A stretch of 64,000 bases of DNA from an uncultured Steroidobacteraceae bacterium (GTDB taxonomy: Bacteria > Pseudomonadota > Gammaproteobacteria > Steroidobacterales > Steroidobacteraceae). Positions 24,672 to 34,946 of this stretch are shown here, piece by piece. The notes beneath the pieces are model-generated. The model saw only the letters and a list, made by a program, of their open reading frames with translations. It made no database searches and was not told the origin of the DNA. The translations under genes and the position numbers were made by a program. The DNA lies in the NCBI GenBank assembly GCA_964600315.1, contig CAZRKS010000001.1:7078-71077 (forward strand). The letters run 5' to 3'. Each line of letters begins with the position of its first letter. The stretch's first letter is position 1.

Positions 24672-25697
24672 ATGCGGGTGATGGTCACCGGATCGACCGG
24701 CTACGTCGGCGCCTTCAGCGTCAAGGCGCTCATCGACGCCGGCCACCGGGTCCGGTTGCTCGTGCGCGATCCCGCCAAGGCGGGAACCGTGCTTCGTGCC
24801 GTCGGGGTCAGCGGCCGGCTGGACTGCGTGCAGGGTGACATGACCGACGAAGCGTCGGTGCTGGAGGCCCTGAAGGGCTGCGACGCGGCACTGCACTGCG
24901 CGGCCGTGGTCAGCACGCACGCGTCGCGCGAGCAGGAAATGCTGCGCGCCAATCCGCAGGGTGCCGAGTTCGTGATCGGCCACGCCGTGCGCCTGGGGCT
25001 CGATCCGGTCATCCATTGCTCCAGCGTCACCGCCCTGCTGCGGCCGGGCGCCACGGTCCTCACGGCCGACATGCCGCCGGGCACGCTCACGCGCGGCTAC
25101 GCAGGTTCCAAGATCATCTGCGAGCAGTACGTGCGGACGCTGCAGAGCACGGGCGCGCCGGTCGTCATCACCTACCCCGGCAGCGTGACGGGTCCGGCTG
25201 CGTGGAGCATCCTCGGTGAAGCGACGCTGGGCGTGGCGGCGACCGTCCGCGCGGGCTTGCTGCCGACGCGCGAGGCGGCCCTTTCGATCATCGACGCGCG
25301 CGACCTCGGGGCCATACACGCCGCACTGATGACCCGCGGACGCGGCCCACGACGGATCCTGTGCGGCGGCCACTACCTGACTCCGGTGGACATCGCGCAG
25401 CGACTGCAGAATCTCACGGGGCGAAAGTTCCGCGTGCTGCCCGTGTCCGCCGCGCTGCTGCGCGGCGCTGGCCTGCTGTCCGACGCCGTTTCGCGCGCGC
25501 TGCCGCGGCTCGCCAACCCGTTCACGCACGAGGCCATGGTCTATTTCACGCAGTTACCGCCGACCGACGACTCCGCGGTGTGGCGTGAACTCGGCCTGCG
25601 TTACCGCGATGTCGAGGACACGCTGCGCGCGTCCATCCTCGCGGCGCGGGCCGCCGGTCTGCTGAGCGACGCTCAGATCGGCAAGCTGGCGTCTTGA
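24672..25697 (+). CDS. NAD-dependent epimerase/dehydratase-family (extended SDR, 3beta-HSD-like) protein
   Basis: Trimmed to ATG 24672, with GGGAGA upstream. MRVMVTGSTGYVGAF Rossmann motif and YAGSK catalytic motif. 341 aa. Confidence 0.8.
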   Translation: MRVMVTGSTGYVGAFSVKALIDAGHRVRLLVRDPAKAGTVLRAVGVSGRLDCVQGDMTDEASVLEALKGCDAALHCAAVVSTHASREQEMLRANPQGAEFVIGHAVRLGLDPVIHCSSVTALLRPGATVLTADMPPGTLTRGYAGSKIICEQYVRTLQSTGAPVVITYPGSVTGPAAWSILGEATLGVAATVRAGLLPTREAALSIIDARDLGAIHAALMTRGRGPRRILCGGHYLTPVDIAQRLQNLTGRKFRVLPVSAALLRGAGLLSDAVSRALPRLANPFTHEAMVYFTQLPPTDDSAVWRELGLRYRDVEDTLRASILAARAAGLLSDAQIGKLAS

Positions 25698-26692
25698 CGA
25701 TCCCGCCGCGGCCGTGCCGCGGCGCGCGGTTTCTGCCGGGACCGTCCCCGGGTCCGACCGGACCCTGTCGCACGCACCTTGCGCTTCCCCCCGGCCGTCG
25801 CCGCCTGCGTGGTTTCCCGCATGAATTCGCCCATCCGGGCGATTGCCGCCTTGGTCTCGGGCAGGAACGGCACCATGTGCCACACGTGCGGCACCTGGTC
25901 CCAGACCTCGACCCTGAAGTCCACGCCCTGCGCGACGGCGCGCTTCGCGACGCGACGCGTGTCGTCGAGCAGCACCTCGGTGCTGCCCACTTGCGCGAGG
26001 ACCGGCGGCAGCCCGTGAAAGTCGCCGAACACCGGCGAGACCAGCGGGTTGTCGTGCAGCGCGTCGTCGAGATAGAGCGCGTTCATCATCTTCATGCTCT
26101 TCGGCGACAGCATCGGGTCGCGACGCGCATTCGAGAACCGCGACTCGCCGCCGAAACTGAAGTCGGTGAACGGCGAGATCACGACCGCGCCGGCCGGCAT
26201 CGGGTCGCCGTCGTCCCGCAGCGCCAGCAGGGTCGACAGCGTCAGCCCGCCTCCGGCGGAGTCGCCGGCAATCACGATGCTCGCGGGGTCGGTCCCGAGG
26301 TCCAGCAGGTGGCGATAGGCCGCCAGGCAGTCCTCGAGCCCGGCCGGAAACGGGTGTTCGGGCGCCAGCCGGTAATGCACCAGCAGCGCCCGCGATCCTG
26401 CCGCCCGGCACACCCGTGCCACCATCAGCGGCACCTGCCCCGACGCCGGCAACATGAAGCCGCCGCCCGGCAGGTAGAGCAGGGTCATCGCATCGCTCGA
26501 CTCCCGCGTCCGTATCCATTCGCCGCGGAAGGCGTGAGCCGCCACCGGGGACATCTTCACTCCGGCCGGCAACCTCGGCCTGCCCCGCCCTTCGACGAAG
26601 CGCCGCGTCTCCTCGAGCGTGCTGTTGGTCATCATCCGCTTGACCGTGAAGTGCAGCACCAGGTTCAGGACCTTTGCCTGCCAGCTCGCCAT
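25673..26692 (-). CDS. alpha/beta hydrolase, HSL-family lipase/esterase with basic C-terminal tail
   Basis: 339 aa. LPGGGFM oxyanion region and GDSAGG nucleophile elbow. The last ~40 aa are Arg/Lys-rich (GGKRKVRATGSGRTRGRSRQKPRAAARPRRDR). The 3' end overlaps the convergent gene by 25 nt. Confidence 0.8.
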   Translation of the reverse strand: MASWQAKVLNLVLHFTVKRMMTNSTLEETRRFVEGRGRPRLPAGVKMSPVAAHAFRGEWIRTRESSDAMTLLYLPGGGFMLPASGQVPLMVARVCRAAGSRALLVHYRLAPEHPFPAGLEDCLAAYRHLLDLGTDPASIVIAGDSAGGGLTLSTLLALRDDGDPMPAGAVVISPFTDFSFGGESRFSNARRDPMLSPKSMKMMNALYLDDALHDNPLVSPVFGDFHGLPPVLAQVGSTEVLLDDTRRVAKRAVAQGVDFRVEVWDQVPHVWHMVPFLPETKAAIARMGEFMRETTQAATAGGKRKVRATGSGRTRGRSRQKPRAAARPRRDRQDASLPI

Positions 26693-26699
26693 CGTAACC

Positions 26700-27689
26700 T
26701 CACTTCGCCGGCGCCGTGCGCGCGGCTGACGGTCGCCGGGCCGGTCGCCTCAGCTTGCGGAAAGTCTCAAGCAGCTTCGCCGTGCGCGTCCCTGCCTGCC
26801 GGTAAGGCCGGCCCGCCGCCTTGAACGCCTCGGACCAGATATGCGCCAACTGCCGCGTGATGTCGCCTGACATCCTGGAATTGCGCGTGCAAGCCTCGCG
26901 GACCACCACGACGCGTCGGCGAAACGACTCGGCCCGACGCAGGTCGCGCATGAATTCCAGCTTGGCGCCGAGCGACTCGCGCTGGTGCCGCGACAAGCTC
27001 GCACTCGCCTTCGTCGCTCCGGCGAGCAACGCGCTGACGGCCTCGATCGCCGCGGCCGCCTCGACCCAGTTGGAGCGCGCGGCCTGCCGGCGACCGGCAT
27101 GGGGCGCAATGTCCTCGTGCCCGCGGAGCACCTCGAATTCGGCCGTGGCTTCCTCCCCGAACACCGGGTCCAGGATCGGCTTCATGTTCGCATCGATCTC
27201 GGCCCAGTCCGCGGACCTGAGCACCTGCCGGGCACGCGGGAAGGCCCGGAGTTCCTCGACGTCCATGTGCCGCCGCAGATGGCCGATATAGCGGTGTGCG
27301 CTCTTGCGCAGCGCGAAGGTGTCGGCGGTCCTGGGATCGGCACGGCAGCGGTCGATCAGCGCGAGCAGCTCGGCGCCCCGCGCCAGGATCTGCACGTGGT
27401 CCGCGAGCAAGTGCTCCACCTGCGGCGCGGAGGGCGGATCGCGCTCCACGAGCTTGCGGAAGACGAGGTCCTCCTTGGGGTGGTGGAAGCGGTCCGGGTA
27501 GTTGGTCATGTAGCGCATGACGCCGTGCATGACCTCGTAGTCGGGCTGCTTGCGCTGGTTGAGCAGGGCCACCTGCTTCTCCAGCAGCCTGAACACCCGC
27601 AGCTGGTAATGGTGCTCTTCGACCAGGGCCCGCAGGATGTCGGGCACCTCCAGAGCCTGTTTGCCACGTCCTCGTGCTGGGGTCGCCAT
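26700..27689 (-). CDS. hemerythrin-like domain protein with helical, basic C-terminal extension
   Basis: 329 aa, GAGGGAGA SD. The N-terminal ~190 aa carry His/Glu motifs typical of hemerythrin/HHE domains (EEHH, FHHPKED, LLADH, HLRRHMDVEE). The C-terminal ~140 aa match no family I recognise and end in KLRRPARRPSAARTAPAK. Confidence 0.75.
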   Translation of the reverse strand: MATPARGRGKQALEVPDILRALVEEHHYQLRVFRLLEKQVALLNQRKQPDYEVMHGVMRYMTNYPDRFHHPKEDLVFRKLVERDPPSAPQVEHLLADHVQILARGAELLALIDRCRADPRTADTFALRKSAHRYIGHLRRHMDVEELRAFPRARQVLRSADWAEIDANMKPILDPVFGEEATAEFEVLRGHEDIAPHAGRRQAARSNWVEAAAAIEAVSALLAGATKASASLSRHQRESLGAKLEFMRDLRRAESFRRRVVVVREACTRNSRMSGDITRQLAHIWSEAFKAAGRPYRQAGTRTAKLLETFRKLRRPARRPSAARTAPAK

Positions 27690-27716
27690 GGGGTCTCCCT
27701 CGTTCAGCCTCTGCCG

Positions 27717-28175
27717 TCAGCCGCGGGTGCTCCGGCGCCTGCCCGCTGGCTTCCTGTTGACCGGGCGCGTCCCCGCGGCCCGCCGTTGCGGTTCGGCGCG
27801 CGCGAGCAGGCGATCGACCTTGTCGCGCAGCTCGGCCATGTCCTCGCCGGTCGGCACGCCCAGGCGCATCAAGACCGCCATGACCCGCTCGTCGAACACG
27901 CCCTGCAATCGCCCTTGGGACGGCAAGCCCATCATTCTGCTCGGCGACCCGGTCCAGTCACTCCAGACCTTGCGGGCCACCTCGTGCAGTTCCGGCTCCA
28001 GCCTGCGGCCTTCTGCGACGAGGGTCCTGAAGTCCGCCCGGGCCCGGTTCCTGTCGGCCCCGTTGGCACGGTTCAGGGACGCCAGCCCGGCGAGGACGAC
28101 GTCGTGGGACGACTCCCGGACGCGCGAAAGCCAGGCGTCGGATTCGGCCTTCGTGCGGATCTTTCGGCTCGGCAT
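27717..28175 (-). CDS. phasin-like granule-associated protein (PhaI/PhaF N-domain type)
   Basis: 152 aa, GGAGAAATC SD. VVLAGLASLNRA...FRTLVAEGRRLE...VFDERVMAVLMRLGVPTGEDMAELRDKVDRL matches the pattern I recall for Pseudomonas PhaI/PhaF (WLAGLGAY...FDxRVxxxLxRLGxPSxxDxxxL). Basic tail. Confidence 0.7.
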   Translation of the reverse strand: MPSRKIRTKAESDAWLSRVRESSHDVVLAGLASLNRANGADRNRARADFRTLVAEGRRLEPELHEVARKVWSDWTGSPSRMMGLPSQGRLQGVFDERVMAVLMRLGVPTGEDMAELRDKVDRLLARAEPQRRAAGTRPVNRKPAGRRRSTRG

Positions 28176-28244
28176 GATTTCTCCGGTGCTCGCAGATGGG
28201 AATGCCCGATTCAGACCCTAGGCCCCGGGATTAGAGCAATCAAC

Positions 28245-28937
28245 TCAGGTACTTCCCGCAAGCTGCGGCAGGTAGCGGCGCGCCACGCGCCGGAACTCCT
28301 CCTGCTTCGGGCCTCGAAGGTAAGGGGTGACCAGCGACATCACCTGGAAGACTCCTTGCGAGAGCGCGTCGTCGTCGACCAGGGCCGGTCCGGCACCCAC
28401 CGGGCGCTGCAGGGCTCGAAAGTTCAGCCAGTAGGTCGTCAAGAGCGAGATGTTGGTCGCCAGCGCGCGCGCCTCGTCCGGCGTCGCATCGAGCGAGCCG
28501 GAGGTGACGAGCGCCCGGCAGTAGGCGCTCAGGCGGGAAACGCCGGACTCGAGACCGCGCAGGAAGCGCCGGCGCAGCACTGGATACGCCGAGCACAGTT
28601 CGCTCAGGTCGCGGTGAATGAACTGGTAGTCCTGGATCACCTCGAACGACAGGTGCAACAGCAGCCACAGGTCGTCGACAGCCTGCCGGTAGCCGGCGTC
28701 GTCGCCGGTGACCTCCGCGACGGCGCCCTGGTAGCGCTCGAACAGCGCCATGACGATGTCTTCCTTGTGGCGGAAGTGATAGTAGAGGTTGCCCGGGCTG
28801 ATCCCGGCCGCATCGGCGACGTGATTGGTGGTGACGTGCGGCACGCCTCGTTCGTTGAACAGGGCCAGCGCCGCCGCCAGGATGCGCTCGCGGGTCTGGG
28901 TCGCTCCGCGCCTCGCGGCAGGCTCGCGCGGCTTCAC
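28245..28937 (-). CDS. TetR/AcrR-family transcriptional regulator
   Basis: GTG start 28937, overlapping the WS/DGAT stop (GTGA). HTH segment RERILAAALALFNERGVPHVTTNHVADAAGISPGNLYYHF. Confidence 0.85.
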   Translation of the reverse strand: MKPREPAARRGATQTRERILAAALALFNERGVPHVTTNHVADAAGISPGNLYYHFRHKEDIVMALFERYQGAVAEVTGDDAGYRQAVDDLWLLLHLSFEVIQDYQFIHRDLSELCSAYPVLRRRFLRGLESGVSRLSAYCRALVTSGSLDATPDEARALATNISLLTTYWLNFRALQRPVGAGPALVDDDALSQGVFQVMSLVTPYLRGPKQEEFRRVARRYLPQLAGST

Positions 28938-30433
28938 GCGCGGGCCCGTCGCTTCGCTGCCTTGCGTGGTGTCGCGGCGCGGGGCGACCTGAGGCCCATG
29001 GCCTTCTCGAGGATCGCGAGTTCCTCGCCGGCATACACGGCGATCCGCTGCGGGCTCGGGCAGAGATCGGGACAGGCCAGGATGCCCATGTCCAGGCTGG
29101 CGCCGAAATTGCTCACCGTGATGTTCAGCGCCTGGCCCGCCAGCAGCAGCGAAGTCGCATACATCGCCTCGAGCCGCGCGCCGTTGACGTACTGAGTCTC
29201 GCGCGGTCCGGGCACGTTGGAGATCACGAGGTTGGCATTGAGCACCTTGTGCGCGAACGTCGTCTTCGCCGCGAGAATCTGCGGGATCATCGCCAGCTGG
29301 GTGTAATTCTGGTAAGTGTCCGCGTCGAGCTCGTGCATGAGCCCCTTGTTGGCGCGGCTCGAGGCAACGACGGCCAGCAGGCGTCGCCGGGGGTTGGCGA
29401 TTTCGGTTCCGAGCGACACCAGGATCTGGCCGACCGCATTGCCGCTGGCCGCGTCATCGGCGCGCTCGCGCGCCACCGGGCAGGCGGCGATCAGCGGCTT
29501 CTCCGGCAGTGCACGCTGCTCCTTCAGGTAGCGGCGCAACGCGCCGCCACAGACGGCCAGCAGGACCTCGTTCACCGTGGCGCCGCCGGGCACGGCCGCG
29601 CCGATCGCCTTCATGCGATCGATCGACAGCGACACCGTGCCGAGCCGCCGGCGCGCGGTCAGCGTGCCGTTCAGGATCGTCGCCGGCGCCGAATACGGAG
29701 CGATCTTGCCCCCACCGGATTTGCCGAGGCTCAGCTCGCCCACCTTCTGCAGCGCCGTGCCCCAGGAGGCGAGCGCCTGCAGGGTGCTCGTCTGCGGGAC
29801 CGGCACCTTCTTTTTGGCCGGTGCTTTCGCGGCGCGGGCGCGCAACTGCTTCAGGTCGACCGCCCAGACCGGCGGCATCCCTCGCGCCGCGGGATCGGTC
29901 GAGCGGATGTACCGGCTGAGTTCCATGCCCCGCTTGCCGTCGAACTGCGAGTGGTGGAGCTTGGTGTAGATCGCGAAGCGCCCGCCCTCCAGCCCCTCGA
30001 TCAGGTGCATCTCCCACAGCGGGCGGCTGCGGTCGAGACGGTTCACGTGCAGGCGCGCAACGAGTTCGCCGAGTTCACGCTGGCCGCCGGGACGCGGCAG
30101 GGCGTGCAGGTAGATGTGTTCGTCGACGTTCACCTTGTCGAGCTTGGCCCAGGCCCGGAACGGCTTGGGTTTGCCGCCGCCGAGCACGCGTGGCCGCAGC
30201 TTGCCCAGCAGCGACTTGCGCTTCGGCTCCGGTGCGACCGTCACGAGCTTGTAGTTGAAAGGCTCGGCCCGCACCGGCGACTTGCGCAGGTAGGCGTGCA
30301 GCTGCTGGAGGTAGTCGCGTCCCGCCCCCTCCGGCAAATCGTAGATCTCCAGTCCGCCGATGTGCGTCGGCGCCGCGACAGTGTCGGAGTCGAGGAAATA
30401 TTCGTCCTGCCGGTTCAGTCGTTGGAAGGCCAT
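28934..30433 (-). CDS. wax ester synthase/acyl-CoA:diacylglycerol acyltransferase (WS/DGAT), paralog 1
   Basis: 499 aa. Active-site HHxxxDG motif (KLHHSQFDGKRG) and N-terminal APTHIGGL typical of WS/DGAT. Basic C-terminal tail. Confidence 0.9.
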   Translation of the reverse strand: MAFQRLNRQDEYFLDSDTVAAPTHIGGLEIYDLPEGAGRDYLQQLHAYLRKSPVRAEPFNYKLVTVAPEPKRKSLLGKLRPRVLGGGKPKPFRAWAKLDKVNVDEHIYLHALPRPGGQRELGELVARLHVNRLDRSRPLWEMHLIEGLEGGRFAIYTKLHHSQFDGKRGMELSRYIRSTDPAARGMPPVWAVDLKQLRARAAKAPAKKKVPVPQTSTLQALASWGTALQKVGELSLGKSGGGKIAPYSAPATILNGTLTARRRLGTVSLSIDRMKAIGAAVPGGATVNEVLLAVCGGALRRYLKEQRALPEKPLIAACPVARERADDAASGNAVGQILVSLGTEIANPRRRLLAVVASSRANKGLMHELDADTYQNYTQLAMIPQILAAKTTFAHKVLNANLVISNVPGPRETQYVNGARLEAMYATSLLLAGQALNITVSNFGASLDMGILACPDLCPSPQRIAVYAGEELAILEKAMGLRSPRAATPRKAAKRRARA

Positions 30434-30445
30434 GGCCTCGCCCCC

Positions 30446-31846
30446 CTATGGCTTCGAAACACGTGCATGGGCACCGCGCGCCGCGCGACCCCTCGCGCGC
30501 GGCTTCAGCTCGAGCGCCGCCTCCAGCTCACGCAGCGCGACCGGCAGCTGCAGCGCCAGGTACTGCACGCTCGGCAGCGTGTCGGGGCAGGCGACGAGGC
30601 CGAAATGCAGGTGCTTGCGATAGCTCAGCACCGTGATGTTGAGCCGCTGGTCCCCCGACAACACTGACAGCGGGTACATGCCGTCGACCTCGGCGCCCCG
30701 GAAATACAGTCGTTGCATCGGTCCCGGCACGTTGGAGATCGTTAGGTTGGTGAACGCCGCCCGATCGGGATCCGTGTTCTCGCGCTTCGGGACCATCATC
30801 ATGAGCTGCATGCCGACGGAATTGACCGCCTTGTGCAGCGACATGGGCATGACCTGGAATTCCTCTTTGGCCGCGCGCATTTCCTTGCGAATGGCCAGCA
30901 ATCGCTTGCGGGGGTCGCGCTGCTGCGTCGCGATCGCGGTGTGGATGCTGGCGACGGAACTGCCGTGCGTGTCGCCCGCGGGGCGCGGCAGCGCGACCGG
31001 CACCGTGGCGAGCAGGCTGTCCTTCGGGATGCGGTCACATTTCGCGAGGTAAGCGCGCAGCGCACCGCTGCAGACCGCCAGCACGACGTCGTTGACCGTG
31101 GCGTTCGCCGCACGGGCGACGGCCTTGATGCGCGGCAGGCTCAAGTCCTGCGTGGCGAGGCGCCGCCGGCTGGTGCTGCTCCCGTTCAGCACGCACCGGG
31201 GTCCGCGCGGGATCAGCGGCACGTCGCGCGAACGCGCCCGCGATCCGCCGACGTTGCGCAGCAACTCCGCGAAGAACCGGCGCCAGTCCTCGTCGGCCGA
31301 CTGCGTCGCCCGGACGGTCACGCGGGCCCTGCGCGGTGTCGACCACGGCGGCAGACTCGGGCTGCGCGGCGACTCGCCGAGGGCGCCCGCGACCTTGTTG
31401 ATCAGCCCGATCCCGTCGCCCAGGGAGTGGTGGACCTTGAGGTACAGCGCGAAACGGTCGGGCCGCAGGCCTTCGATCAGCGTGCACTCCCACAGCGGGC
31501 GCGAACGCTCGAGGGGCAGCGAATGCAGGCGCGAGATCGCAAGCCCCAACTCGCGCTGGCCGCCCGGCCACGGCAACGCCTCGTGGCGCAGGTGGTACTC
31601 GAGGTCGACGTGTTCGGCCGCCTCCAGCGCGGGCGAGTACTTGCCGAGGCCCCGCTTCTCCACGAGCCGCAGGTTGAACGGCTCGCTGTCCACGGCGCAG
31701 CGCGCGAGCTTCGCGTGCAGTTCCTGCATGAAGTCGGGCGACGCCCCCTTCGGCAGCCTGCAGGTCATCAGGAGCCCGATGTGCATCGGGGCCTCGGGGG
31801 TTTCGAGTCGCAGGAACAAGGCGTCCTGCGTGCTGAGCTTGACCAT
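30446..31846 (-). CDS. WS/DGAT acyltransferase, paralog 2
   Basis: Trimmed to ATG 31846, with AGGAGAA upstream (MVKLSTQDALFLRLETPEAPMHIG). HHSLGDG motif. 466 aa. Confidence 0.9.
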   Translation of the reverse strand: MVKLSTQDALFLRLETPEAPMHIGLLMTCRLPKGASPDFMQELHAKLARCAVDSEPFNLRLVEKRGLGKYSPALEAAEHVDLEYHLRHEALPWPGGQRELGLAISRLHSLPLERSRPLWECTLIEGLRPDRFALYLKVHHSLGDGIGLINKVAGALGESPRSPSLPPWSTPRRARVTVRATQSADEDWRRFFAELLRNVGGSRARSRDVPLIPRGPRCVLNGSSTSRRRLATQDLSLPRIKAVARAANATVNDVVLAVCSGALRAYLAKCDRIPKDSLLATVPVALPRPAGDTHGSSVASIHTAIATQQRDPRKRLLAIRKEMRAAKEEFQVMPMSLHKAVNSVGMQLMMMVPKRENTDPDRAAFTNLTISNVPGPMQRLYFRGAEVDGMYPLSVLSGDQRLNITVLSYRKHLHFGLVACPDTLPSVQYLALQLPVALRELEAALELKPRARGRAARGAHARVSKP

Positions 31847-31984
31847 CGGCTCTGATTCTCCTGCAGGGGCCGGTTCTGCCGCCGGCACTCGTGAGCGATG
31901 ACACGGCCGGGCCCGACCGTCGAGTCGGCGTTCCGGCCTCGCCAGCGTCGCAGGCAGGACTGCTGCGCTCATCCCCCGTTCAGA

Positions 31985-33469
31985 CTACCGGCGCCGCGCA
32001 GCGCCGCGTCCGGGGCTGGTCGGCCGGGCGGCCCGGCGCGAGCCTGAGCCGGTCGTACGCCGGCCGGCGAGCGCCCGCTCGAGTTCGTCGAGTGACTCCA
32101 GGATGAGCCCGCCGACCCGCCGCGGATCCGGGAGCAGATCCGGACAGACCAGCACGGCCACGTCGAGCATGTTCCGGCGGCTGATCACGGTGATGTTCAT
32201 CGCCTGTCCCGGCACGAGCAGCGACATCGGGTAGTCCGCCTCGATCAGGGCCCCGTTCGAATAGCGCTTCTCGCGCAGGCCCACGACGTTCGAGATCACG
32301 ACGTTGTGGGCGTGCGCCTTCTCGGCCCGGCCGAAAATCGTGAACAGGATGTAGGGCAGGCCGATCAGGCCCATGTAGATGTTGAGCGCCGTGGGCGACG
32401 GCAGGCCGTGGATCAGTTCCTTCGCGTGCTGGCTCGACGAGCGCACGGCCTCGAAGCGCCGCACGGGATCCTTGAGATGCGTCGCGAGCGAAACCTGGCC
32501 GGACGCAATCGCATTGCCGCCGGCCTGGCCGCCGGCCCGGGTCACGGCGACGATCATGTTGGCGACCAGCGCCTCCTTCGGCAACGCGTGCCGCCCGAGC
32601 AGATAGCGGCGGAGCGCGGCGCCGCAGATGGCCATCACGACGTCGTTGATCGTCGCGCCCTGGGACCTGGCCAGCCGCTTGAGGCGCGACAGCGGGAGCC
32701 GCGTGACACCGATCTCGCGCTGGGCCGTGACCTTGCCATTGAGGATGCTGTCGGGTGCGCGGTAGATCGGCACCAGGCCGCCGTCGGTCGGATGCCGATA
32801 CGAGTCGATCACCCGGCCGAACGCGGTGCCGAGTTCGCTCACGACCTCGACGCCGTCGCTCACGCCGGCGCGGCCGCGTTCCAGCCAGCCGCGCGCGGGT
32901 TCCGCGCTCCGCCCGCCCCGCTTCGTCGCCGCCGCTTCGCTCCTCTCCTCCATGGTCACGCCCCAGAACGGCAGCAGCCCGCGTTCGTCGGGGTCCGCGC
33001 TGGTGGTCTCGCGGTAGAGCCGCATGCCCCACTGGCCATCGACGTACGCGTGATGGATGCGCGAGAAGGTTGCGTACCGGTTGCCAGGGAGGCCCTCGAT
33101 CAGGTGGTGCTCCCACAGCGGCCGCGAGCGGTCGAGCAGCCCGGAGTTGAGGCGCGAAACGAGTTCGAACAGTTCGTTCTCCGTCCCCGGCCACGGCAAC
33201 GCGTGATGGAAGATGTGCCTGCGAAGGTCGACCGCGTCGAGGACCTTCCAGCCAGGGATACCCGGCAGCGGCCCGCTCGCCGTGTACAGGTAGTTGAAAG
33301 GCGCGCCGTTCGCAGGGATGTTCATCAGCTGATCGCGCAGCTTGCGCACGTAGTCGCGACCCGCGCCGGGCGGCTTGCGCAGGATCTGCACGCCGGCGAC
33401 GTGCATCGGCGTCTCGGGCGACTCCATCGTCAGCATCATGATGTCCATCGGATTCATCGACTTCAGCAT
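31985..33469 (-). CDS. WS/DGAT acyltransferase, paralog 3
   Basis: Trimmed to ATG 33469 (MLKSMNPMDIMMLTMESPETPMHVAG). HHAYVDG motif. 494 aa. Close paralog of the next gene. Confidence 0.9.
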   Translation of the reverse strand: MLKSMNPMDIMMLTMESPETPMHVAGVQILRKPPGAGRDYVRKLRDQLMNIPANGAPFNYLYTASGPLPGIPGWKVLDAVDLRRHIFHHALPWPGTENELFELVSRLNSGLLDRSRPLWEHHLIEGLPGNRYATFSRIHHAYVDGQWGMRLYRETTSADPDERGLLPFWGVTMEERSEAAATKRGGRSAEPARGWLERGRAGVSDGVEVVSELGTAFGRVIDSYRHPTDGGLVPIYRAPDSILNGKVTAQREIGVTRLPLSRLKRLARSQGATINDVVMAICGAALRRYLLGRHALPKEALVANMIVAVTRAGGQAGGNAIASGQVSLATHLKDPVRRFEAVRSSSQHAKELIHGLPSPTALNIYMGLIGLPYILFTIFGRAEKAHAHNVVISNVVGLREKRYSNGALIEADYPMSLLVPGQAMNITVISRRNMLDVAVLVCPDLLPDPRRVGGLILESLDELERALAGRRTTGSGSRRAARPTSPGRGAARRR

Positions 33470-33530
33470 CGCTGCAAACCTCCCGCTGCCTGACCTCTTC
33501 CCCGGCTCCTCGCAACACCGGCACCCGATC

Positions 33531-34946
33531 CTACCGCTTCCTGGCGAGCGCCCGTTCGAGCTCGTCCAGCGATTCCGCGATGGCCTCGCCGACACGCTGC
33601 GGACCGGGGACCACGCTCGGGCAGACGAGCACGGCCACGTCGAGCATGTTCGCGCGGCTGATGACCGTGATGTTCATCGCCTGGCCCGGCACGAGCAGCG
33701 ACATCGGGTAGTCGGACTCGACCAGCGCCCCGTTGACGTAGCGCCTTTCGCGAAGGCCGATGAGGTTGGAGATGACGACGTTCTGGGCCCGCGCCCTGTC
33801 GGCCCGGCCCAGGATCGTGTAGAGCGCGAACGGCACGCCGGTCAGGCCCATATAGAGGTTGAGCGCCGTCGGCGAGGCCATGCCGTGGATGTGGTCCTTC
33901 GCGCGCCGGCTCGACGAGCGCACGGCCTCGAAACGCTTGACCGGGTCCCTGAGGTGGGTCGCCAGCGACACCTGCGCGGCCGCAACGGCGTTGCCGGCGC
34001 TCGCGCCCTGCTGACGTGCGACGGCCACGATCATGCCCGCGATCAGCGCCTGCTTGGGCAGGGCGTCGCGCTCCAGCAGGTAGCGCCGCAGGCCGCCGCC
34101 GCAGATGGCCAGCACGACGTCGTTGACCGTCGCACCGTGCGCCCGGGCCAGCCGCTTGATGCGCGCCAGCTCGAATTGCGTGACGCCGATCTCGCGTCGC
34201 GCGGTGACCTTGCTGTTCAGGATGCAGAGCGGCGCCTGGTAGATCGGCACGAGGCCGCCGTCCGTCGGATGCCGGCGCGCTTCGAACAGGTGGCCGAATG
34301 CGGCGCCCAGTTCGGTCACGGCCTCGACGCCTTGATCGAGGCCGGCGCGGCCCCGTTCCAGCCAGCCCGGCGTGGGCGGCCCGCCGCGCGGGGAAGCCCT
34401 CTTCGGCGTCGCAGCGGGCTTCTCGTGGATTTCCACGGCCCAGTACGGCAGCAGCCCGCGGACGTTCGGGTCCGGACTGGTGGTCGCCTCGTGCAGCTTC
34501 ATGCCCCACTGGCCGTCGATCAGCGCGTGGTGCACGCGCATGAACGTGGCATAGCGCTGCCCCGCGAGACCCTCGATCAGGTGGTATTCCCAGAGGGGCC
34601 GCGAGCGATCGAGGTGACTCGAGTTGAGGCGCGAGACGAGCTCGAACAGTTCCGCCTGCGTCCCTGGCCAGGGCAGCGCGTGGTGGAAGACGTGCTCCCG
34701 GAGGTCGACCTCGTCCAGCACTTGCCACGCGGGCACGCCCGGCACCAGCCCGCTGGCGGCGTACCGATAGTTGAAGGGGGCGGCGCGCGCCGGGATGCGC
34801 AGCAGCTGGTCGCGCAGCTTGCGCACGTAATCGCGGCCTGCGCCGCGGGGTTTGCGCAGGATTTGCACGCCACCGATGTGCATCGGCGTTTCCGGTGACT
34901 CCATCGCCAGCAGCATGGCGTCCAGCAGGTTCATCGATTTCAGCAT
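33531..34946 (-). CDS. WS/DGAT acyltransferase, paralog 4
   Basis: 471 aa (MLKSMNLLDAMLLAMESPETPMHIGG). HHALIDG motif. First gene of the minus-strand string. Confidence 0.9.
   Translation of the reverse strand: MLKSMNLLDAMLLAMESPETPMHIGGVQILRKPRGAGRDYVRKLRDQLLRIPARAAPFNYRYAASGLVPGVPAWQVLDEVDLREHVFHHALPWPGTQAELFELVSRLNSSHLDRSRPLWEYHLIEGLAGQRYATFMRVHHALIDGQWGMKLHEATTSPDPNVRGLLPYWAVEIHEKPAATPKRASPRGGPPTPGWLERGRAGLDQGVEAVTELGAAFGHLFEARRHPTDGGLVPIYQAPLCILNSKVTARREIGVTQFELARIKRLARAHGATVNDVVLAICGGGLRRYLLERDALPKQALIAGMIVAVARQQGASAGNAVAAAQVSLATHLRDPVKRFEAVRSSSRRAKDHIHGMASPTALNLYMGLTGVPFALYTILGRADRARAQNVVISNLIGLRERRYVNGALVESDYPMSLLVPGQAMNITVISRANMLDVAVLVCPSVVPGPQRVGEAIAESLDELERALARKR

Follow-up and report, generated by a model that had tools for sequence, protein, structure and literature searches.

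Polybasic C-terminal tails on the wax ester synthases, phasin and lipase of a Steroidobacteraceae bacterium: a possible tether of lipid bodies to a cellular polyanion

In Ralstonia eutropha the PHB synthase PhaC1 is linked to the nucleoid by its activator PhaM, which carries a PAKKA tail. To our knowledge, the positioning, spacing and inheritance of neutral-lipid droplets are known only for actinobacteria (MLDS/TadA) and, by analogy, for PHA granules (PhaF, PhaM); we know of no established droplet-organising factor in the Gram-negative producers of wax esters or TAG, nor of polyanion-tethering tails described for these lipid-storage enzymes. The C-terminus of the phasin PhaF is AKP-rich and histone-like and binds DNA non-specifically (PMC7590123). 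The PAKKA C-terminus of MLDS also binds DNA non-specifically, and recruits DNA to the droplets (PMC5504291), while relatives of HBHA are stated to be found only in actinobacteria (PMC6176652). In MLDS/TadA (Rhodococcus) and HBHA (Mycobacterium), as in the proteins described here, a droplet-targeting part is followed at the C-terminus by a polycationic tail rich in A/K/P, and PAKK-like motifs are enriched in the tails of the wax ester synthases (WS/DGATs) sampled from relatives. MLDS, TadA and HBHA are, however, structural, non-enzymatic and actinobacterial, whereas the tails reported here are borne by proteobacterial acyltransferases, a lipase and PHA-type phasins, all of other Pfam families.

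The stretch of 64,000 nucleotides analysed (the window) holds a string of lipid-related genes, all on the minus strand. A sequence-only reading had claimed that six of the products end in basic tails beyond their conserved domains, and this is confirmed: the six tails match the minus-strand ORFs letter for letter, and the Pfam domains end before the tails in WS1–WS3 (24–31 residues before the stop) and in the phasin (25 residues before the stop). WS/DGAT1 (WS1, 28934..30433, PF03007 and PF06974) has a tail of 19 residues (LRSPRAATPRKAAKRRARA, 28937..28993, net charge +8). The tail of WS/DGAT2 (WS2, 30446..31846 with a chosen start, PF03007 and PF06974) is also 19 residues long (KPRARGRAARGAHARVSKP, 30449..30505, net +7), and that of WS/DGAT3 (WS3, 31985..33469, PF03007 and PF06974) comprises 26 residues (GRRTTGSGSRRAARPTSPGRGAARRR, 31988..32065, net +9). 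WS/DGAT4 (WS4, 33531..34946) has no tail and ends in ...ELERALARKR; the TetR-family regulator encoded within the string (28245..28937, PF00440 and PF13972) is tail-less as well. Arg dominates the six tails and Lys is scarce (0–3 in each), and the only PAKK-like motifs in the window are PARR/RRPA in the hemerythrin protein and RKPA in the phasin.

The four WS/DGATs of the window are assigned with E-values of 1e-53 to 1e-62 for the catalytic domain (PF03007) and 1e-25 to 1e-29 for the C-terminal domain (PF06974). The active-site motif HHxxxDG is present in every translation (HHSQFDG in WS1, HHSLGDG in WS2, HHAYVDG in WS3 and HHALIDG in WS4), and H160, H161, D165 and G166 are invariant in the WS/DGAT alignment. 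The two-domain fold and the catalytic motif are shared with the Marinobacter WS/DGAT (6CHJ) and with AtfA/WSD of Acinetobacter baylyi (7NXG). WS1 matches 6CHJ with an E-value of 4.8e-77 and the alignment stops at WS1 residue 480; unlike WS1–WS3, the 6CHJ and 7NXG enzymes are tail-less, their chains finishing level with WS1 residue 478–480. In the AF2 model of WS1 (pLDDT 87) the last helix spans residues 461–478, and the tail (481–499) shows a pLDDT of 63, falling to 48. Some internal loops of the WS1 model are also basic and of low confidence. WS4 is a duplicate of WS3 (71% identical) and the sole tail-less member among 15 complete paralogues in the genome; aligned with WS3, it differs at the stop by a 1-nt indel and has no convincing tail remnant downstream. 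Since WS4 and the 6CHJ and 7NXG enzymes work without it, the tail seems unnecessary for catalysis. The model enzymes with solved structures lack the tail, which may be why it has gone unremarked so far; a literature search, in which the phrase 'WS DGAT' may miss 'WS/DGAT', returned no paper that connects a wax ester synthase with the nucleoid or with Lys-rich tails.

The phasin gene (27717..28175) lies between the TetR-regulator and hemerythrin genes, downstream of the four WS/DGATs. Its product is of the PhaF/PhaI type (PF05597, E=1.7e-13, residues 10–127) and ends in 25 residues of net charge +8 (EPQRRAAGTRPVNRKPAGRRRSTRG, 27720..27794), with +7 and +8 in the orthologues. The analogy with PhaF that had been drawn from the sequence is apt: in both proteins an N-terminal PF05597 domain is followed by a polybasic low-complexity C-terminus, and each of the 15 PF05597 phasins sampled from the order is polybasic at its C-terminus (the order-level homologues have Lys-rich tails of 26–64 residues). 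Unlike the histone-H1-like AKP-rich C-terminus of Pseudomonas putida PhaF, the window tail is short and Arg-rich, without AAKP repeats; its gene belongs to the WS/DGAT string and not to a pha cluster (both PhaC genes are on other contigs), and here the WS/DGAT enzymes and the lipase themselves bear tails.

The lipase/esterase (25673..26692) is an HSL-type Abhydrolase_3 protein (PF07859, E=9.5e-51, residues 71–273) with a GDSAGG nucleophile motif, and its tail comprises 40 residues (AGGKRKVRATGSGRTRGRSRQKPRAAARPRRDRQDASLPI, 25676..25795, net +12). In four of four syntenic orthologues the tail carries +10 to +12, at 30–44% identity against 77–87% in the domain. An ancient origin was ruled out for this tail: it is restricted to close relatives and is absent in 18 order-level homologues (35–44% identity), which end at about query residue 293–300. 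The hemerythrin/HHE-domain protein (26700..27689, with another possible start at 27647; PF01814, E=7.1e-11, residues 18–153) has a C-terminal extension of roughly 160 residues, and its full-length form is found in close relatives only. The terminal 18 residues (KLRRPARRPSAARTAPAK, 26703..26756, net +7) make the weakest tail of the six, with a net charge of 0 to +7 across orthologues (0, +3 and +5 in the others) and no tail in L014. This tail shows no conservation and could be noise; we put the chance that it is a by-product of composition at about even. A fused hemerythrin-lipase ORF (contig C10) was considered as the source of the tail and rejected, its linker being Ala/Thr/Pro/Glu-rich and not basic.

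The abundance of such tails was measured as the number of Arg and Lys residues (R+K) among the last 25, with cut-offs of at least 9 or at least 7, in our own gene calls for the Steroidobacteraceae MAG (a sludge bacterium, 3,125 genes, 69% GC). The higher cut-off is reached by 35 genes (1.1%) genome-wide and by five of the eight neighbouring genes of the string (WS2 scores 7), for which the binomial P is ~1e-8, with genes that are non-independent through paralogy. With the lower cut-off, 14 of 15 complete WS/DGAT paralogues are tailed, versus 166 of the remaining 3,110 genes (Fisher P ~4e-17). Polybasic tails are also found on three phasins, and the strongest of the whole genome belong to two Phasin_2 proteins; the remaining top tails are on nucleic-acid binders (PcnB, two S4-domain pseudouridine synthases, the KH domain of Der, and LysR/TetR/HxlR/AraC regulators) and on a SET-domain protein. 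Tails concentrate on lipid-body proteins, namely the WS/DGATs and phasins genome-wide plus the window lipase.

Two nulls were built, one off-frame and one from in-frame read-through of 25 codons beyond real stops. The read-through null gives R+K of at least 9 in 5.8% and of at least 7 in 21.7% of genes; individually, the window tails are near the upper range of this yield, an observation that speaks against tethering. The earlier caveat that very GC-rich DNA tends to produce such tails anyway therefore carries some weight where one Arg-rich tail is considered, but fails for the family. With 14 of 15 tailed (P ~6e-9 even under this null), Lys at 11% of this genome's WS/DGAT tails (1% in read-through and 2.2% in the proteome, a 5–10-fold enrichment) and a GC3 of 0.85 (though just 0.63 in the WS2 tail), read-through does not account for the WS/DGATs. 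Together with the relatives at 42–75% GC, the two nulls rule out a GC artefact for the WS/DGAT family and leave it live only for the hemerythrin tail.

Tails were found on 87 of 158 WS/DGATs from relatives, a non-random sample of non-independent kin in genomes of 42–75% GC. The tail frequency is 68–71% below 60% GC, 49% at 65–70% and 14% above 70%, and no WS/DGAT tails are present in Kribbella and Kofleriaceae (69–75% GC). The K/(K+R) ratio drops as GC rises (rho=-0.69, P=1.5e-13), and the low-GC tails are Lys-rich, AKP/PAKKA-like and also longer. The pooled tails contain 22% Ala, 21% Lys, 11% Arg and 7% Pro, with only 0.4% aromatics (FWY), and range from 19 to more than 160 residues. The P[AV][KR][KR] and [KR][KR]P[AV] motifs are 3.8-fold more frequent in the 87 tails than in composition-preserving shuffles, with z-scores inflated by internal repeats. 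Six long tails scanned against Pfam gave no domain, only a sub-threshold HC2 histone-H1-like match (E=0.11). In a random sample of Gammaproteobacteria, WS/DGATs are present in 6 of 150 genomes besides this one and one or two of the 11 genes are tailed, so the tail is lineage-restricted and not universal.

Among orthologues, charge is kept at 17–53% identity in the tails versus 57–87% in the domains. Loss of the tails in orthologues or lower-GC relatives had been named beforehand as refuting. Charge, but not sequence, is kept by the syntenic orthologues of the lipase, the phasin, WS1 (21–53 residues, net +6 to +17) and WS3 (+11, +13 and +5), while the WS2 tail is retained in L014 and L015 (+7 and +8) and lost in L016 and L017, and the hemerythrin tail is not conserved. 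The tails of WS1, WS3, the lipase and the phasin thus passed the refutation test named beforehand. Net charges lie at roughly +6 to +17 in this genome and reach some +40 in relatives. On the tree, tail state requires at least 27 changes versus 52 with shuffled labels, and hence is clustered, yet gained or lost repeatedly. One homologous shared tail was ruled out, as no alignment is found between different proteins or paralogues. Judged from these sequences, the tails are compositional features, repeatedly gained and lost, and are kept by selection for positive charge; they are a real feature and not translated junk. The proposal of a common device on a lipid-body proteome survives in part: the selected tails concentrate on lipid-body proteins, but a single device common to all six is not supported, the tails being non-homologous and those of the lipase, WS2 and hemerythrin protein restricted, twice lost and unconserved, respectively.

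In nine WS/DGAT-phasin gene pairs of the order, a long phasin tail (+13 to +27) accompanies an enzyme without a tail, and a short one (+5 to +7) accompanies a tailed enzyme (+7, +8); the pattern represents about five lineages. In one WS/DGAT subfamily the tether thus appears to be supplied in trans by the adjacent PhaF-type phasin. As with PhaM, a storage-polymer synthase would be tied to DNA via a Lys-rich tail, but unlike PhaM, whose tail acts in trans to the synthase, most WS/DGATs here have it in cis.

Fat droplets are probably anchored by these tails to DNA or to some other structure of negative charge. By analogy with the described systems, we hold with moderate confidence, evenly balanced against doubt, that these disordered polycationic tails tie the proteins of the lipid body to a polyanion of the cell, nucleoid DNA being the most probable one. 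The tail follows the last helix of the fold on nearly every WS/DGAT, on phasins and on the lipase, and net positive charge is preserved while sequence, length and Lys/Arg ratio drift with genome GC. It would act by electrostatic tethering to the polyanion, as the tails of PhaF, PhaM and Rhodococcus MLDS do, with the tether fused in cis to the enzymes. What the tails bind (DNA or anionic lipid) and what they do in the cell (droplet siting, spacing or segregation, or DNA protection) are inferred.

The target could instead be lipid, since anionic phosphoinositides, and not DNA, are the reported ligands of the similar AKP tail of HBHA, and this Lys-rich C-terminus is needed for both phosphoinositide binding and lipid-inclusion formation (PMC6176652). 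The tails would then keep the enzymes, the phasin and the lipase at the negatively charged phospholipid of the inner membrane or droplet monolayer, and not at DNA, concentrating them where neutral lipid is made or mobilised. Every tailed window protein acts at a lipid surface, and the lipase, with its conserved tail, has no obvious reason to contact DNA. We nevertheless regard this anchoring as rather unlikely: membrane-binding polybasic motifs usually need aromatic or hydrophobic residues, which are nearly missing here, the enriched PAKK-like motifs are typical of DNA-binding tails, similar tails elsewhere in the genome belong to DNA- or RNA-binding proteins, and the phasin N-domain and WS/DGAT fold already bind the surface in tail-less homologues. 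An improbable explanation is that of a general helper without specific tethering, either a solubility tag or entropic bristle for aggregation-prone amphiphilic proteins or a promoter of RNA/polyphosphate condensates; it agrees with the conservation of charge alone, the wide range of lengths, the 27 gains and losses and the basic low-confidence loops inside WS1, but leaves unexplained the consistently cationic, never acidic character of the tails, the enrichment of PAKK-like motifs and the apparent trading of tails between enzyme and partner phasin. That the sequence from fold end to first stop is Arg/Ala/Pro-rich by default in 69%-GC DNA and functionless is very improbable and, despite the read-through yields, the Arg dominance in the window, the low GC3 of the WS2 tail and the unconserved hemerythrin tail, is refuted at the family level by the 14 of 15 tailed WS/DGATs, the Lys enrichment, the conserved charge and the commoner and longer tails of low-GC relatives, being plausible only for the hemerythrin tail.

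Returning to tethering by charge, these tails are hidden by domain-based annotation, and a charge-conserved, histone-like tail, present in over half of the WS/DGATs sampled, offers a concrete hypothesis. Tentatively, the neutral-lipid synthase may be nucleoid-tethered in many Gram-negative accumulators (Steroidobacterales, Halieaceae, Limnobacter and others), where a histone-H1-like tail on the WS/DGAT or on an adjacent PhaF-type phasin, exchanged between cis and trans, would seed wax-ester/TAG droplets on the chromosome. The droplets would be positioned, inherited and perhaps DNA-protecting, as is the case for PHA granules through PhaF/PhaM and for the droplets of Rhodococcus through MLDS, and a shared charge code would bring lipases to the same scaffold. 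Where WS/DGATs are used in wax-ester and biodiesel engineering, the tails may influence their solubility, localisation and yield.

The lipid string of the window comprises eight co-directional genes on the minus strand, as assigned by a Pfam scan. Four of them encode wax ester synthase/diacylglycerol acyltransferases, each with PF03007 and PF06974 domains: WS4 (33531-34946), WS3 (31985-33469), WS2 (30446-31846) and WS1 (28934-30433). They are followed by a TetR regulator (28245-28937, PF00440 and PF13972), a PhaF/PhaI-type phasin (27717-28175, PF05597), a hemerythrin-domain protein (26700-27647, PF01814) and an HSL-type lipase (25673-26692, PF07859). The Arg/Lys-rich C-termini quoted in the sequence-only reading for the lipase, hemerythrin protein, phasin and WS1-3 match the window translations letter for letter in all six cases. 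The lipase ORF shares its final 25 nt (25673-25697), which hold the stop codon and the last part of the tail, with the 3' end of a convergent NAD-dependent epimerase-like gene on the plus strand (24672-25697).

In the tailed proteins the fold ends well ahead of the stop codon. The Pfam domain ends 24-31 residues before it in WS1-3 and 25 residues before it in the phasin. Alignment with the solved Marinobacter (6CHJ) and Acinetobacter (7NXG) enzymes reaches only residue 478-480 of WS1; the tail is absent from these crystallised model WS/DGATs, whereas it is present on WS1. The AlphaFold2 model of WS1 has a mean pLDDT of 87 and places the last helix at residues 461-478, beyond which pLDDT drops to 63 and then 48. 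Two internal loops of WS1 (residues 71-90 and 201-220) also have low pLDDT (59-69) and a basic sequence of their own (…GKLRPRVLGGGKPKPF… and …RARAAKAPAKKKVPVP…), thus positive charge extends beyond the C-terminus.

In the genome examined (3.48 Mb, 480 contigs, 69% GC, ~71% complete), a codon-bias model called 3,125 genes; these are our own crude calls, and false ORFs among them would raise the background, so that the enrichment test is conservative. At least nine Arg+Lys among the last 25 residues occur in 35 of the called genes (1.1%) and in five of the eight adjacent string genes (WS2 has seven), a clustering with P of roughly 1e-8, though three of these string genes are paralogues. Translation of 25 codons in frame beyond real stop codons (read-through null) gave at least nine in 5.8% and at least seven in 21.7% of cases, nearly all of them Arg, therefore a lone Arg-rich tail is unremarkable in this genome. 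The caveat that GC-rich DNA produces such ends by composition holds to this extent, but it breaks down for the WS/DGAT family. Of 16 WS/DGAT genes, 15 are complete, and 14 of these carry at least seven Arg+Lys in the last 25 residues, versus 166 among the other 3,110 genes (Fisher P=4e-17); under the read-through null the probability is about 6e-9. Lys makes up 11% of these tails, against 2.2% of the proteome and 1% of read-through sequence, and their GC3 (0.85) is of the coding type. The 16 paralogues are spread over contigs C1, C5, C10, C20, C21, C76, C110, C116, C277, C350 and C404. Elsewhere the family is rare, being found in 6 of 150 other genomes in a random class-level draw and in none of four other genera of the same bacterial family.

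The sole complete WS/DGAT of this genome without a tail is WS4, a 71%-identical duplicate of WS3 that is absent from the syntenic string at locus L014 of a relative. Comparison of 33445-33575 with 31960-32090 revealed a 1-nt indel exactly at the origin of the WS4 TAG stop, and a frameshift may account for the loss of the tail; no clear tail remnant was found in the sequence downstream of WS4.

The host is a Steroidobacteraceae MAG with its nearest kin from activated sludge. The same string is found in synteny in three genomes (loci L014, L015 on contig G014:C34, and L017) and in part at a fourth locus (L016). Orthologues share 57-87% identity in the folded domains and 17-53% in the tails, which vary in length. 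The sequence-only reading had proposed orthologue comparison as a check, and across orthologues the net charge of the tail is kept for the lipase (+10 to +12, 4/4), WS1 (+6 to +17, 5/5), WS3 (+5 to +13, 4/4) and phasin (+7 to +8, 3/3). For WS2, the tail is kept in three (+7, +7, +8) and lost in two, while that of the hemerythrin protein is unconserved (0 to +7, absent in one).

The wider survey comprised 80 WS1 homologues from named genomes, 56 WS/DGATs from 27 evenly drawn genomes of the same order, and 11 from a class-wide draw. The tail was defined uniformly as all residues beyond the HMM of the C-terminal domain, and an enzyme was counted as tailed at net +6 or more. By this measure 87 of 158 enzymes are tailed, in a non-random sample of relatives with non-independent kin; median length is 42-71 residues by GC band, with a maximum above 160. 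Tails persist in lower-GC relatives, and at higher frequency: 68-71% of enzymes are tailed below 60% genome GC, 47% at 60-65%, 49% at 65-70% and 14% above 70%. The high-GC Kribbella, Nocardioides and Kofleriaceae enzymes end directly at the last helix, and tails such as KKPAAPKKPVAAKKPALAKKPAAAKKPAAA are found in Limnobacter (52-57% GC), Halieaceae and a 44%-GC Cellvibrionales MAG. The Lys share of basic residues drops as GC rises (rho=-0.69, P=1.5e-13). On the C-terminal-domain tree at least 27 tail-state changes are needed, versus 52 (minimum 44) for shuffled labels, with FastTree on ~150 columns overcounting such changes; the tail is thus clustered, yet gained or lost repeatedly. Since tails are commoner at low GC, exchange Lys for Arg and cluster on the tree, the compositional explanation fails at the family level. 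The conserved property is charge, and codon pressure sets whether Lys or Arg supplies it.

A single device shared by all six proteins is not supported. Among lipase homologues of 35-44% identity at 18 loci of the order, none has a C-terminal tail, and the lipase tail is a recent addition within a narrow clade, conserved inside it. Only close relatives have the hemerythrin protein in its long form. The phasin tail, in contrast, is order-wide: all 15 PF05597 phasins found there end in a polybasic stretch of 12-64 residues, an architecture that is classical for PhaF. Of these 15, nine adjoin, or sit a single gene away from, a WS/DGAT that belongs to one subfamily (C-terminal ...EFEKL|LLxxLM...). 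Six of these nine pairs combine an enzyme without a basic tail with a long phasin tail (+13 to +27), and three a tailed enzyme (+7, +8) with a short one (+5 to +7). Tail charge thus seems to trade off between the partners, which suggests, on about five independent lineages only, that either the enzyme itself (in cis) or the phasin (in trans) can provide the tail. The pair is conserved across the order (L198-L211 with L121-L131) and is also present in the source MAG (G000:C116:341-2316); this pairing suggests that wax-ester or TAG bodies are coated by these PF05597 'PHA' phasins.

A second lipid module (G000:C10:15424-19000, minus strand) contains a single open frame in which a hemerythrin domain with its helical extension is fused to an Abhydrolase_3 lipase (identity to the window lipase 49%); a tailed WS/DGAT comes directly downstream. 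Such a fusion connects the functions of the window's neighbouring hemerythrin and lipase genes, and O2, NO or iron sensing may control lipid mobilisation.

Outside the WS/DGATs, two Phasin_2 proteins (contigs C88 and C244) have the strongest tails, which are basic and very long. As the genome encodes two PhaC-type PHA synthases (G000:C19:9725-11437 and G000:C157:356-859), these may belong to PHA granules and not to lipid droplets; the C-terminus of the C19 synthase, the one read, has no tail. The remaining strong tails are almost all on nucleic-acid-binding proteins: poly(A) polymerase (arginine-rich C-terminus), two S4-domain pseudouridine synthases, the Der KH domain, regulators of the LysR, TetR, HxlR and AraC types, and a bacterial SET-domain protein (PF00856, G000:C23:3173-3799, plus strand), which is basic at both ends, with 14 Arg+Lys among its last 25 residues. 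The C-terminal part of SucD (succinyl-CoA ligase alpha; G000:C139:6569-7123, minus strand) continues into about 85 aa of basic sequence with three KRSTAA repeats, unusual on an enzyme of central metabolism.

The pooled tails consist of A 22%, K 21%, R 11%, T/S 15%, P 7% and aromatics 0.4%. Motifs of the forms P[AV][KR][KR] and [KR][KR]P[AV] exceed composition-preserving shuffles 3.8-fold, with z-scores inflated by internal repeats. The same composition and motif are found in Rhodococcus MLDS, whose PAKKA tail binds DNA and brings it to lipid droplets (PMC5504291), in PhaF, with its AKP-rich histone-like domain (PMC7590123), and in HBHA/TadA, whose A/K/P C-terminus binds anionic phosphoinositides and is one on which the formation of lipid inclusions depends (PMC6176652). 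Tails on structural proteins of storage granules are already known; our literature search found no description of tails fused to WS/DGAT enzymes or to a lipase. Given this match, we read the tails as putative electrostatic tethers of lipid-body proteins. The main rival for the tether partner is an anionic phospholipid surface. Nucleoid DNA, to which, with binding itself inferred from sequence, the tails would most likely tether the lipid-body proteins, is favoured by the kind of motif, by the missing hydrophobic residues and by the nucleic-acid-binding company of such tails in the genome.
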